NCBI GenBank assembly: GCA_964650945.1
Contig: CAZYXU010000002.1
Coordinates: 22,105 to 86,104 of the forward strand
Reading direction: 5' to 3'
Origin: an uncultured Verrucomicrobiota bacterium
Lineage (GTDB): Bacteria > Verrucomicrobiota > Kiritimatiellia > JAAZAB01
Length of the DNA stretch: 64,000 nucleotides
Within the stretch, counting starts at the first letter, position 1, and every line of letters starts with the position of its first letter. The notes under the pieces were generated by a model. The model did no database searches, was not told where the DNA came from, and was given only the letters and a program-made list of their open reading frames with translations. Positions 10,005 through 17,059 of this stretch are shown in pieces. A program made the position numbers and the translations under genes.

Positions 10005-10922
10005 TTATTTACCTTGCGTTTTTGCCGGGTGGTAATGCACGTGCACGCGGCGGGTGAATCCCACTTCTTTCACCAGAATCCGCTCGACCTTGGAAGCAAT
10101 CCGGTCGCCATCGGCAACGCTCAGCATCCCGTCTATGCCGATGGTGACATTCAGCACCAAGTATGGCCCAAAATGATGCGCCTGAACCTCTTCCACCGCA
10201 ATGATACCCGGGATGCCGGCCAGCAGCGCGCGCACCTGCCGATCGAGATCAACGCCCGGCACAGCGTCCATCAAATTCGCCGACGAGTCCCGGAGGATCT
10301 GGATGCCGGTCTTGAAGATGATCAGCGAGACCAAGGCGCCCGCCAGCGGATCGGCCCAGTGGTACCCCATCCGGCCCATCAGGATGCCCAGCCCCGCGCC
10401 CGCCGCGGAAAACACATCATTCCGATGATCTTCGGCCAGCGCCAAGACGGCGGAGTTCCCCGTTTGTTTCGCCCATAAGCGCGTGACGATGGTGAGCGCG
10501 ATTTTCAGGACGACCGTCGCCAAAGCCACCCAGAGTGTGAATCCGGCGGCGTAAATCCGCTCGGTCTTCCCCACAACCATGTCAAATGCCGCGTTGACGG
10601 AATCCCAAAAAATCGCCACAGCCGTCGCCATGACAAATGCGCCCACAACCACCGCGGCGATGCTTTCCATCTGGCTGTGACCATAGGGATGCTCGCGGTC
10701 GGCCGGCTTGCCGGCAAGCGCCATAAAAACCCGCACGATGACAAAGAAAACCACGTCCGAGGTGGAATTGATGCCATCCGCCAGCAGCGCCGAGCTGTGC
10801 CCCAGAATGCCGGCGGTGGTTTTCACCGCCGCCAGCAACAGGTTGGCGCCCAGCCCCAGATTGACGGCCCGCAGACTGAGTTGATGCCGGCATGCTGTTG
10901 ACAGATTTTCCCGGACTTTCAT
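10005..10922 (-). CDS. Cation diffusion facilitator (CDF) family metal efflux transporter
   Basis: CDF TM signature ([27 protein letters not shown]) and a C-terminal cytoplasmic domain. The likely start MKVREN at 10922 makes an ATGA overlap with the acr3 stop. The track ORF extends to 10994. Confidence 0.8.
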
Positions 10923-12136
10923 GGCGCGCCGCCACGTTCCGCGGCACCCGCCGGGAACCATTTTTGCGTCCGCAGGCAAATCCGCACCAGCCAAAGCATC
11001 ACTGGCACTTCGATCAACACCCCCACCACCGTCGCCAGGGCCGCCCCGGATGAGAGCCCAAACAACATCGTGGACGTGGCAATCGCCACTTCAAAATGAT
11101 TCGAAGCGCCGATCATGGCGGCGGGCGCCGCATCGCGGTATGACAATTTCAGGAGTTTGGCCGCGCCATAACCCAGCCAGAAAATCAACATCGTCTGGAT
11201 GAACAGGGGAATGGCTATCCATAAAATCGTCAGCGGGTTGCCCAGGATGGTCCCGCCCTTGAAGCTGAACAGCAGCACTAGCGTGATCAACAGGGCAATA
11301 ATCGTAACCGGCGTGAGCACATGCAGGAACTTTTCTTTGAACCATAACTCGCCCCGGACCCGGATGATCCATTGGCGGGACAAATAGCCGGCCACCAACG
11401 GCAGCGCCACATAAATCACGATGGACAACAACAACGCCTGCCACGGCACCGGCAGGCGCCCCACCCCCAGTAAAAAACCGCCCAACAAGCCGTACAGGAG
11501 AAGCATGGACAATGAATTAATCGCCACCATGATCAGGGTCAGGCCATCATTGCCCCGCGCCAGGTATCCCCACACCAGCACCATCGCCGTGCAGGGCGCG
11601 ATCCCCAGCAGGATGCAGCCGGCGAAATAGCTGCGCCAGAGCGGCACCTGCAGCATTTTTACGCCTTCATGCAGCACCACGATCCCCGCGCCATGCGTGG
11701 CGCCCAAGGCCAGTTCCAGGCCAAACGGCATTTTCACCAAGTCGGTCGCTTCCGCGCCAATCAGGCCCCGGAACAGAAAGCCCAGGAAGAAAAGGGCAAT
11801 GGCGTACATGGTGAACGGCTTGACGGCCCAATTCACAAACAGCGTCAGCCAGACGGGTTTGCCGCTCTTGCCCGCTTTGATCACAGACGCAAAGTCAATC
11901 TTGACCATGATGGGATACATCATGCAGAAGAGGCAGATGGCGATGGGGATCGAGACCACCGGTGCGCCGTTGACATAGACGGAAAGGCCATCGAGATACT
12001 TGGCCACGCCCGGCGCCACTTTCCCGAGCAAGATGCCGGCAATGATGCACAGCGCCACCCAGACAGTCAGATAGCGCTCAAACACATTCGTCAGTTTCCG
12101 TTCGTTGGCGGGGTCAATCGCATCACTCACTTTCAT
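10919..12136 (-). CDS. acr3: Arsenite efflux transporter ACR3 (arsenical-resistance protein)
   Basis: 405 aa, ~10 TM, with the ACR3/BART-superfamily N-terminus ([15 protein letters not shown]...[13 protein letters not shown]...CLFCMMYP). It overlaps the arsC stop by 4 nt. Confidence 0.9.
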
Positions 12137-12588
12137 GCTCCTTGCTTTGCTTCCGCGGAATTTTTAAGCGACTCCGGCAATTGCTCAACCCAGGCCCGGA
12201 TCTCGTCCCGCACACGGCGGTAGCAAGCAAGGGCCTCCTCCTCCGTCCGGGCATCGCGCGCCAGGCGTGGCGGATCGTCAAAACCAACATGCACTACTTT
12301 GGTCTTACCCGGAAATAACGGACAGGCTTCGTGTGCATTATCGCAAACCGTCACCACAAAGTCAAACCCGACATCCTGCAATTCGTCCACATGCTTCGAC
12401 CGCTGGCCGGATATGTCTATCCCGGCTTCGGCCATCACTTTCACGGCGTTCGGATTCAAGCCATGCGTTTCGATCCCGGCGGAATAAGCATCCAGCACGT
12501 TACCCTTCAGATGCCGCGCCCAGCCCTCGGCCATCTGGCTGCGGCAGGAATTGCCGGTGCAGAGAAAAAGAATCTTCAAACGTTCCAT
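12133..12588 (-). CDS. arsC: Arsenate reductase, thioredoxin-coupled LMW-PTPase type
   Basis: CTGNSCRS P-loop at residues 10-17 plus downstream Cys residues (C83/C90 region), typical of LMW-PTP-type ArsC. Confidence 0.9.
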
Positions 12589-12660
12589 GGTGGGTTACTA
12601 GTTCCTATGCACACACTTAACGCTGAGCCCGGAAAAACGTGCCCTGCGAACTTTAAAATC

Positions 12661-15849: not shown

Positions 15850-15858
15850 GGCACCCCC

Positions 15859-16542
15859 TTAATTGCATCCCGCCGGTCCGCAGCCGGACGGTCCGCACCC
15901 GCCGGCGCTTGACGCGGCAACATATCCCTGGATGAGTTTTGTTTCGGTAATGTCGCCCGACACCGGAATCATCCCGCGGCCCTTGACCATCGCAATCACA
16001 CACGGCACCGCCACTTGCGCGGCAACCTGCGCATAGTCCAGCGAGTCCGTCTTCAGCGTGAAAACACCGATCTTTTGTCCTTGCGCTTCGATCGTCTTCG
16101 CCGCGCTGCGCATTTGCGCCAGGGGGGCCTTCATCGGCGGATCGTTTTTGTCGGCCAGGAAAACAAACACCCCGCCCGTATCGGAGGCCACCGCGTTCAG
16201 TTCGTCGAGCGCGCCGAGTTCTTTTACAGCAACCGTGACAGGGATTGCGGCCGCATCGCCCGTTGCGGGCGCCGCATCGGCTTGAGACGCAGACGCCCGG
16301 CCGGCGACCGGCAAGGCGGCAAAGCCAGACGCCGCGGTAGCGGCCGGGGCGCTGTTGTTTTTCATCACCGCCCGCGCCACCAGCACTCCGGCAGCGAGGA
16401 GAATGACCACACCTGCTATCCAGCGCATGCGACTCGCGGGCACACCGGCATGACAGCCGCAGCCGGGACCGCAGGCCGCAGCCTCCGCTTTCGGCGCTTC
16501 CAGGTTGTTGGTCGGTGTCCAGTCTTCATTTCTTGTGATCAT
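15859..16542 (-). CDS. Membrane-anchored thioredoxin-fold-like protein with Cys-rich N- and C-terminal tails (CGPGCGC ... GGCGPSGCGPAGC)
   Basis: Cytoplasmic N-tail with CGPGCGCH. One TM helix (WIAGVVILLAAGVLVARAV). A ~110-aa domain with a Trx-like secondary-structure pattern but no CXXC. A C-terminal tail with three CGP/CG motifs. 10-nt gap to ccdA. Confidence 0.55.
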   Translation of the reverse strand: MITRNEDWTPTNNLEAPKAEAAACGPGCGCHAGVPASRMRWIAGVVILLAAGVLVARAVMKNNSAPAATAASGFAALPVAGRASASQADAAPATGDAAAIPVTVAVKELGALDELNAVASDTGGVFVFLADKNDPPMKAPLAQMRSAAKTIEAQGQKIGVFTLKTDSLDYAQVAAQVAVPCVIAMVKGRGMIPVSGDITETKLIQGYVAASSAGGCGPSGCGPAGCN

Positions 16543-16675
16543 CGGTCATCCCTCCTTATTGCGCGCCAATCGCAGCGCCGCTCGCAATCAATGCATACGT
16601 CCGTTCGTCCAATTCATCCGGCATCGCACACTCCCGCTTGTGGTCCCGCTAACGCCGACGGCGCATTGTTCCCGT

Positions 16676-17059
16676 TCAGGGCTTGCAGAAAAGCCGGCGG
16701 CAAAGCTTGTTCATATCCTCACCGCAAATACGCTTCAGATTCTTCCGGTCCTCAACAATCCGGCTGGTCTGCGCCATGTCCTTGCAAAGCAAAGCGATGA
16801 TCTTGCCCATCGACGGGGCGCTGAAATCCCTGGACAGCCGGTAATACATCCAGCGCCCGTCTTTGCGACTCTCCACCAGGCGCGCGGCACGCAGGATGGT
16901 CAGGTGCTTCGAGACCGTGGACGGGGCCAAGTCCAACAGGGCAATGAGCTGGCAGACGCACAACTCGCCGCCCTCAAGGGCGCAAAGCGCGCGCAGGCGG
17001 CTTTCGTCCGCCAACGCCTTCAGCACATCCATCACTTCACGCATAGGATCCTCCGTCAA
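16676..17059 (-). CDS. arsR: ArsR/SmtB family metalloregulator
   Basis: wHTH with an ELCVCQL metal-binding motif in helix 3 and additional C-terminal Cys (ICGEDMNKLCRRLFC). It is the first gene of operon A. Its real start is probably an internal Met (17044 or 17032). Confidence 0.85.
   Translation of the reverse strand: MTEDPMREVMDVLKALADESRLRALCALEGGELCVCQLIALLDLAPSTVSKHLTILRAARLVESRKDGRWMYYRLSRDFSAPSMGKIIALLCKDMAQTSRIVEDRKNLKRICGEDMNKLCRRLFCKP

Follow-up and report, generated by a model that had tools for sequence, protein, structure and literature searches.

An hgcAB mercury methylation gene pair inside an ArsR-headed arsenic resistance operon of an uncultured Kiritimatiellia bacterium

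The natural function and regulation of the mercury methylation proteins HgcAB are poorly understood, which limits forecasts of environmental methylmercury production. The locus described here raises the question in a specific form: what is an hgcAB pair doing in the middle of a set of arsenic resistance (ars) genes, and would its expression follow arsenic? The genes lie in a 64,000-nucleotide (nt) stretch of contig CAZYXU010000002.1 (assembly GCA_964650945.1, positions 22,105 to 86,104 of the forward strand) from an uncultured Verrucomicrobiota bacterium of the Kiritimatiellia. We call this stretch the window and number it from its first letter. Our answer, to which we give a probability of roughly 0.65, is that this is one ars operon with hgcAB as an internal passenger, that it would be transcribed as a single unit released by As(III), and that HgcAB would methylate Hg(II).

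Nine co-oriented genes run along the minus strand from 17059 to 10005 in the order arsR, X227, CcdA/DsbD-like, hgcA, hgcB, arsP-family, arsC, acr3 and a CDF gene (Table 1). They were defined from a list of open reading frames (ORFs) and from profile searches of Pfam and NCBIfam, including the curated equivalog cut-offs, which HgcA, HgcB and Acr3 pass. A first-pass annotation of the same DNA, made from the letters alone, had listed these nine genes on this strand. All of them are present essentially where it placed them, the profile searches uphold its identifications, and the motifs it quoted are real: NVWCAAGK in HgcA, two CX2CX2CX3C motifs and a poly-Cys tail in HgcB, TPFCSCS in the ArsP-family protein and CTGNSCRS in ArsC.

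Table 1. Coordinates of the operon and of other features in the window. Scores are in bits, with the model cut-off where one is given.
Feature	Coordinates	Strand	Basis or remark
arsR, ArsR/SmtB repressor	16676..17044	minus	HTH_5 59; NF033788 94.5 vs cut-off 55; longest ORF from TTG 17059
X227, 227-aa Cys-tailed thioredoxin-fold membrane protein	15859..16542	minus	Structure prediction and fold search
CcdA/DsbD-like protein, six transmembrane (TM) helices	15139..15849	minus	DsbD_TM (PF02683) 43.5 vs 27.1; DsbD_2 41
hgcA, corrinoid protein of mercury methylation	14081..15139	minus	NF040863 381.7 vs 275, residues 29-348
hgcB, 2x[4Fe-4S] ferredoxin with Cys-rich C-terminal tail	13720..14073	minus	NF040864 109.1 vs 99
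ArsP-family (PF03773, ArsP_1) permease	12661..13704	minus	PF03773 190.7 vs 32.3
arsC, thioredoxin-coupled (pI258-type) arsenate reductase	12133..12588	minus	LMWPc 69.4; TIGR02691 154.6
acr3, arsenite efflux permease	10919..12136	minus	TIGR00832 363.6 vs 282.8
CDF-family cation efflux protein	10005..10922	minus	Cation_efflux 135 and ZT_dimer; TIGR01297 192.5
Sigma-70-like promoter TTGACG-16 nt-TATATT with TG extension	17075..17102	minus	10/12 matches; directly 5' of arsR
Candidate ArsR operator, imperfect inverted repeat GATATAT-N6-ATATAAC (consensus GTTATAT-N6-ATATAAC)	17063..17082	minus	Sequence and alignment; overlaps -10 box
CMD/AhpD-like gene remnant, 22-codon ORF (MPDELDERTYALIASGAAIGAQ, then stop)	16556..16624	minus	Alignment with L091 and L090
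orf185 and orf75, possible trailing genes	9202..9983 (orf185 9426-9983; orf75 9202-9429)	minus	Spacing after CDF
Divergent CDF gene	17210..18169	plus	Cation_efflux 125.5; 150-nt control region common with arsR
tRNA-Pro(CGG)	8969-9042	plus	Just past operon end
Second ArsR-headed cluster	18192-27370	minus	ArsR 27017-27370, outer-membrane factor, HlyD-type adaptor, RND pump 20059-23169
Further CDF transporter	36067-37254	minus	

The identification of HgcA is clear. The first-pass annotation had allowed that the protein might fall below the HgcA cut-off and group instead with CFeSP paralogs lacking the cap-helix cysteine, but at 381.7 bits and with Cys104 present it does neither. Its scores on the rival models are both below their cut-offs (HgcAB_like fusion, 198 against 285; CFeSP gamma, 74 against 306). 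The cap-helix motif NVWCAAGK occupies residues 101-108 and is found in 80 of 80 relatives. The closest solved structures are those of CFeSP gamma, at 57 bits, and in the alignment they have no Cys at the position of Cys104. For the putative C-terminal membrane domain, a crude hydropathy scan of the protein finds two strong helices, and the profile match runs to residue 348. HgcB, encoded 7 nt downstream, has its CX2CX2CX3C motifs at residues 18 and 48 (CSGCGMCEIVC and CMECGACARNC, the latter including the CMECGA motif), followed by cysteines at CC86-87 and CCC92-94. The pair looks genuine and functional, and mercury methylation is the predicted activity.

The genes around the pair make up a real ars operon, as the first-pass annotation held, with an ELCVC-type ArsR at its head. 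The arsR gene had been given as 16676-17059; the gene is there, but ATG 17044 is preferred to TTG 17059 as its start because a GGAGGA Shine-Dalgarno sequence precedes it and the ATGC start is invariant in the orthologues. The ELCVC motif lies in helix alpha-3, and the protein ends with a C-terminal CRRLFCKP. ELCVC aligns with the Cys32/Cys34 As(III) site of R773 ArsR of Escherichia coli, and ELCVCQ is kept in most of the ArsR orthologues heading sister operons, with ELCAC in L002 and ELCLC in L135 (loci from our surveys carry the prefix L). On this alignment the window ArsR would have the As(III)-binding cysteine site by which ars repressors are recognized. Further down the operon, ArsC has all three of its cysteines (Cys10, Cys82 and Cys89, with CTGNSCRS at 10), and Acr3 has a PCTAMV motif at residue 181. 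The ArsP-family protein has TPFCSCS at residue 67 and three CC pairs in a central loop. No ArsP-specific curated model matched it, and the SO_0444 and SaoE equivalogs scored below cut-off.

The packing of the genes is tight. Spacers of 1-15 nt or ATGA-type overlaps had been reported throughout, and this holds for most junctions, which range from -4 to 15 nt: X227-ccdA 9, ccdA-hgcA -1, hgcA-hgcB 7, hgcB-arsP 15, arsC-acr3 -4 and acr3-CDF -4. The last of these applies if the CDF start is ATG 10922, our revised and most likely start, which overlaps the acr3 stop. It does not hold for arsR-X227 (133 nt) or arsP-arsC (72 nt). Directly upstream of arsR is the top sigma-70-like site of the interval 8800-18300. 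When the arsR upstream regions of seven operons (that of the window and six orthologous ones) are aligned, neither the -35 TTGAC nor the extended -10 TGnTATATT varies. Terminator-like sites gave 20 matches in total, none of them inside any intergenic gap of the cluster. A single conserved promoter 5' of arsR and the lack of an intergenic terminator-like site make the layout compatible with one transcript. An Rfam scan gave just two tRNAs and no riboswitch, and control by a cobalamin or other riboswitch was rejected on that basis.

The two wide gaps are where a different reading would find room. In that reading the genes adjoin without being regulated together: hgcAB would be served by promoters of its own along with X227 and ccdA, arsC-acr3-CDF would be served by others, and expression of hgcAB would be independent of arsenic. 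Gaps of 133 and 72 nt can accommodate promoters, and hgcAB was regarded as constitutive in earlier work cited in 10.1101/2022.10.17.512643 and in PMC11984097. However, neither gap contains a promoter-like or terminator-like site, and the junctions around hgcAB leave little space, with ccdA and hgcA overlapping by 1 nt and both hgcB junctions short. The larger gap also has another explanation. In alignment with L091 and L090, the 133 nt between arsR and X227 correspond to the scar of a ~228-nt internal deletion in a co-oriented AhpD/CMD-like gene, of which a short ORF remains. The gene is intact between arsR and X227 in L091, L090 and L084; the L091 protein has HCQPC (a CxxC) and CC tails, and the L084 protein has a Pfam CMD match. 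From these alignments, we take the gap to be a deletion scar and not a regulatory spacer. Separate promoters are therefore, in our judgment, an unlikely account of the locus, and a single arsenite-derepressed transcript is the plausible and most economical reading of the sequence.

The proposed operation of the operon is as follows. An ArsR dimer would occupy the inverted repeat, whose sequence overlaps the -10 box of the one conserved promoter (17102-17075). Binding of As(III) to the ELCVC cysteines would release ArsR, and a polycistronic mRNA of ~7 kb would then be made. Since the operon would be transcribed only then, HgcAB would be made only upon ArsR release. ArsC would reduce As(V), Acr3 would expel As(III) and the ArsP-family permease would expel trivalent organoarsenicals. 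X227 and the CcdA-like protein, which has a vicinal Cys pair (CC-type), would be the operon's native membrane thiol module, and HgcAB would methylate Hg(II) like other HgcAB pairs. What has been observed directly is the identity of the genes, their tight packing on one strand, the conservation of the promoter, the recurrence of the architecture and the constancy of X227 and the CcdA-like protein in this kind of ars operon.

Several points weigh against this scheme. The role given to the ArsP-family protein comes from PF03773 membership and not from equivalence to Campylobacter ArsP. The TIGR02691 score of ArsC, 154.6 bits, is under the equivalog cut-off of 174.3. The right arm of the candidate operator is conserved only in part in the seven-operon alignment. 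There is a promoter-like match within arsC, at 12365-12337, and the 133-nt and 72-nt gaps could harbour internal promoters. Finally, the inducer could be a thiophilic species other than As(III), and the ArsR2 regulator of hgcAB in strain ND132 responds to S-adenosylhomocysteine (SAH) as well (10.1101/2022.10.17.512643).

Two genes between arsR and hgcA are not part of the textbook set. X227 has no Pfam or NCBIfam match. It had been called Trx-like, and structure prediction and fold search confirm this. It has an N-terminal ACGPGCGC, then one TM helix (~38-60), a linker that varies, a domain of thioredoxin fold that lacks CxxC (106-213), and at the C-terminus a tail with GGCGP..GCGP.GCN. Its 725 homologues all carry the annotation hypothetical and lack Pfam domains; the closest ones, where named, come from Kiritimatiellota and Verrucomicrobia metagenome-assembled genomes (MAGs). 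In the family alignment, ACGPGCGC (Cys24/28/30) and the GGCG...GC tail are invariant, with the TM helix, the variable linker and a conserved domain of ~110 residues between them. A relationship to ArsD was rejected: X227 has no match to PF06953, hhalign against an ArsD alignment gave a probability of 0.4%, and ArsD is not among the top structural matches.

The CcdA-like protein has the TM1 and TM4 cysteines of the DsbD_TM fold plus an extra one that makes a vicinal pair in TM1, unlike the canonical motif. The TM1 motif is SACCTLPAMG and the TM4 motif is SLPCNPG; both are near-invariant, with one or two substitutions, in 60 X227-linked orthologues. The canonical CcdA found elsewhere in the window (18585-19286) has a single Cys per helix. 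CcdA-like proteins linked to hgcA in Bacteroidales have C(A/G)CN and CCNP motifs. The protein was also considered as ArsG and rejected, its NF040495 score being 40 bits where the cut-off is 200.

X227 loci were collected by exact-protein look-ups and by a metagenome scan; there are 87, of which 74 are unique. Downstream sequence was sufficient in 41 loci, and in 40 of them the CcdA-like gene comes next after X227. ArsR and Acr3 are on the same strand in all 21 well-flanked loci that remain after removal of duplicates. The slot after the X227/CcdA-like pair holds a P-type ATPase, ArsM, HgcA-HgcB or ArsD-ArsA. Scored for methylating enzymes, the 21 loci have ArsM only in 14, HgcAB only in four, both in none and neither in three; that is, 18 of 21 have one or the other. 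Since ArsR and Acr3 are constant and the slot is varied, X227 and the CC-type CcdA-like protein are a constant of one type of ars operon and not specific to hgcAB. They form a conserved, unnamed module that, as read from these loci, carries ArsM or HgcAB as cargo. Literature searches for hgcA with CcdA or DsbD returned no description of the X227/CcdA-like pair next to hgcA.

As a separate observation, 11 of the 21 well-flanked loci have a P-type ATPase after the CcdA-like gene (for example, L086 9562-11633 and L090 6517-8388), sometimes preceded by a 62-aa ORF. A P-type ATPase is an unusual component of an ars operon.

The module is a concrete candidate for the handling of Hg or As upstream of methylating enzymes. 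One specific form of this idea, speculative and in our view improbable, is that X227 and the CC-type CcdA-like protein, with the CMD protein where intact, form a cysteine relay that moves As(III) or Hg(II) through the inner membrane or along it and passes it to the adjacent ArsM or HgcAB. If true, this relay would supply the substrate-delivery route that is missing for HgcAB. It would also account for the methylating enzyme in 18 of 21 such operons and for the extra-Cys CcdA-like gene that, in at least four phyla, lies directly upstream of hgcA. The MerT/MerP mercury import relay uses cysteine pairs on a small membrane protein together with a soluble Cys-bearing partner, and the ArsD metallochaperone, a thioredoxin fold without CxxC, passes on As(III) through cysteine clusters. 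The likeness of both to the X227/CcdA-like pair is an analogy only.

The neighbourhood survey suggested by the first-pass annotation was run with one genome per GTDB species. It found 594 HgcA relatives, and the best 80 were taken with flanks, so that frequencies are those of this sample and not of all hgcA. Flanks were annotated by tblastn, the queries being the window proteins plus ArsM, ArsD, ArsA and others. In 27 of these best 80 loci, one or more structural ars genes lie on the hgcA strand within 5 kb, and the same is true of 13 of the 30 that have full 10-kb flanks. Among the species-representative genomes, a Kiritimatiellia MAG has the closest HgcA (63% identity by tblastn, 66% by local alignment), and its gene order is ArsR-HgcA-HgcB-ArsC-Acr3. 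An exact look-up of the window HgcA matched only a 1.8-kb Logan contig from SRR8925805, and one for the identical X227 protein gave no match. In 10 loci, which belong to Bacteroidota, Planctomycetota and Eisenbacteria, fewer than 400 nt separate hgcA from the end of a CcdA-like gene upstream; in one Chloroflexota locus the distance is larger. In Bacteroidales, the order ArsC-(ArsM)-CcdA-like-HgcA-HgcB-Acr3 is repeated. Two of these loci, L034 (7687-12349) and L040 (7704-12349), have ArsM beside HgcAB as ArsC-ArsM-CcdA-like-HgcA-HgcB-Acr3, and their CcdA-like proteins have CxC and CC.

The window order itself recurs in L091 as ArsR-CMD-X227-CcdA-HgcA-HgcB-ArsP, with CMD intact. Identities to the window are 87% for ArsR, 75% for X227, 90% for the CcdA-like protein, 80% for HgcA, 74% for HgcB and 70% for ArsP. 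Variants of the order are found in L084, L117, L121, L118, L038, L053 and L135. In L118, L038 and L053, hgcAB comes right after arsR, and in L135 it comes after acr3. The protein identities do not track one another: against L118, the CcdA-like protein is 82% identical but HgcA is 52%, and against L117 the figures are 72% and 75%. That different hgcAB lineages occupy different positions in similar backbones points to repeated capture or reshuffling, and from these comparisons hgcAB appears to have been captured more than once by one type of ars operon. Separately, L084 encodes at 11158-13398, downstream of hgcB and arsD, a 746-aa ArsA with an LMWPc (ArsC-like) domain fused at the C-terminus.

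These comparisons bear on whether the linkage has any functional meaning, or whether hgcAB simply hitch-hiked on a horizontally mobile metal-resistance island. The 17 kb around the operon are rich in metal genes, including a second ArsR-headed operon with RND, Trx and CcdA genes and two more CDFs; a tRNA-Pro gene abuts the operon end; and HgcA phylogeny has been shaped by horizontal transfer (PMC10083202). A genomic island at the tRNA-Pro gene was nevertheless rejected, since the tRNA 3' end is not repeated, the scanned neighbours include no integrase, and GC composition shows no break. More to the point, hgcAB stands at three positions in similar backbones, and the identities of HgcA and of the backbone are incongruent. 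This points to repeated capture, which would imply selection for the linkage and is harder to explain by one hitch-hiking event. The linkage also recurs in Bacteroidales in a different order. Hitch-hiking alone we therefore rate as very unlikely.

Another reading takes arsenic itself as the substrate. The first-pass annotation had raised a role of HgcAB in methyl transfer to arsenic. In this reading, HgcAB would methylate arsenite or another metalloid by way of its corrinoid, as a cobalamin-dependent analogue of ArsM, and the ArsP-family permease would export the product. The Cys-ligated methyl-Co(III) of HgcA is thought to give a carbanion or radical to electrophilic Hg(II), and methylation of As(III) is an oxidative transfer of a methyl cation. 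This difference counts against methylation of As(III) by HgcAB. An ArsP-family gene does follow hgcB, 15 nt away in the window and again in L091, but the adjacency is not conserved, and L084, L117 and L121 have ArsD-ArsA or a P-type ATPase at that position. The distribution of cargo in the well-flanked X227 operons, with ArsM and HgcAB never together, gives a naive hypergeometric P of 0.006, which is not corrected for phylogeny. Replacement of ArsM by HgcAB was rejected as a rule, since ArsM and HgcAB occur within one operon in L038 (with X227), L034 and L040. An hgcAB deletion strain of ND132 is more sensitive to As(V) (10.1101/2022.10.17.512643), but arsenic-exposed ND132, in which hgcAB is arsenic-induced, yielded no monomethyl- or dimethylarsenicals. 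The idea has no direct support from these results, and we regard it as having very little chance of being correct. Methylation of Hg(II) from within an arsenite-released operon is still the reading we prefer.

The trailing CDF gene had a single weak match across the surveyed loci (L034, 24% identity). After it, a gap of 21 nt containing GGGAG leads to orf185, and orf185 joins orf75 by an ATGA overlap. The first has a signal peptide and the second has one TM helix; neither has a Pfam match. The GC content at third codon positions is 0.53 for the two, against 0.64-0.78 for the operon. It is uncertain whether they are genes 10 and 11 of the operon, as their spacing would allow. At the other end, the CDF gene facing away from arsR may be co-regulated with the operon because it shares the control region with arsR; a plus-strand promoter-like site precedes it at 17127-17155. 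The second ArsR-headed cluster also includes Thioredoxin_3, thioredoxin, the canonical CcdA and DUF6951. Elsewhere on the minus strand (31478-33585), LarC-like nickel-insertion and LarB-like (AIR carboxylase family) genes, unrelated to the operon, suggest synthesis of a nickel-pincer cofactor.

The association of hgcAB with ars genes has been noted several times. Fig. 6 of McDaniel 2020 has hgcAB flanked by acr3, arsC, arsM and arsR in diverse MAGs (PMC7438021). Gionfriddo 2022/2023 explicitly tested the link to arsenic resistance, found hgcAB transcription in ND132 to be ArsR-dependent and responsive to arsenic and SAH, and listed MAGs with arsC, arsB and arsM beside hgcAB (10.1101/2022.10.17.512643). 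The ars neighbourhood was observed again by Zhang 2023 (PMC10349881). In Peterson 2025, an arsR-like gene precedes hgcA with acr3 and arsC nearby (Fig. 4c), most commonly in Kiritimatiellae, and in situ expression of hgcA is reported as lower where an arsR-like gene precedes it (PMC11984097). Both the hgcAB-in-ars arrangement and the arsenic hypothesis are thus already published for the same lineage; the locus illustrates them cleanly but is no discovery. It leaves the general picture unchanged, since hgcAB beside ars genes under an ArsR-like regulator was known. What is added here is the X227/CC-type CcdA-like module, the CMD deletion scar, the conserved promoter with its candidate operator, the canonical ELCVC regulator and evidence that hgcAB was captured repeatedly. 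The locus is also among the cleanest cases: its ArsR is of the canonical ELCVC kind, it has one conserved promoter, and hgcAB is held between ars genes by junctions of -1 to 15 nt. With this layout it is well suited as a template for testing directly whether arsenite controls mercury methylation.

The closest characterized system is arsR2-hgcA-hgcB of ND132 (Pseudodesulfovibrio mercurii; Goni-Urriza 2020, Gionfriddo 2022/2023). It resembles the window in having a same-strand ArsR gene directly upstream of hgcAB. It was shown to be co-transcribed and arsenic-responsive. There are no other ars genes at the ND132 locus, whereas hgcAB in the window sits between six further same-strand genes of the ars operon. 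The regulators also differ: ArsR2 has an atypical four-Cys site (Cys47/49/86/88), and the window ArsR has the canonical ELCVC in alpha-3. The MAG neighbourhoods in the cited figures of McDaniel 2020 and Peterson 2025 are the same phenomenon and probably come from the same lineage as the window. Those figures give the presence of neighbours; the X227/CcdA-like pair, an ArsP-family gene directly after hgcB and a trailing CDF are not among what they present.

Compared to classical ars operons (arsR-arsC-acr3, or arsP as in Campylobacter jejuni), the window likewise has ArsR, a thioredoxin-type ArsC, Acr3 and an ArsP-family permease in one orientation, but five extra genes are interleaved: X227, CcdA-like, hgcA, hgcB and CDF. 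Two of these extend a theme described by Castillo and Saier 2010, who found by bioinformatics that genes for CcdA, for thioredoxin and for redox-active disulfide protein 2 occur in ars operons (PMC2963123). The pairing of a DsbD/CcdA-family protein with a Trx-fold protein is the same here, and the canonical version of it is found in the window itself at 18585-20062. The pair in the hgcAB operon differs in that X227 has no CxxC and has Cys-rich N- and C-terminal tails, and in that the CcdA-like protein has a vicinal CC in TM1. By these sequence features, the X227/CcdA-like pair is a distinct variant of the 2010 CcdA/thioredoxin theme.

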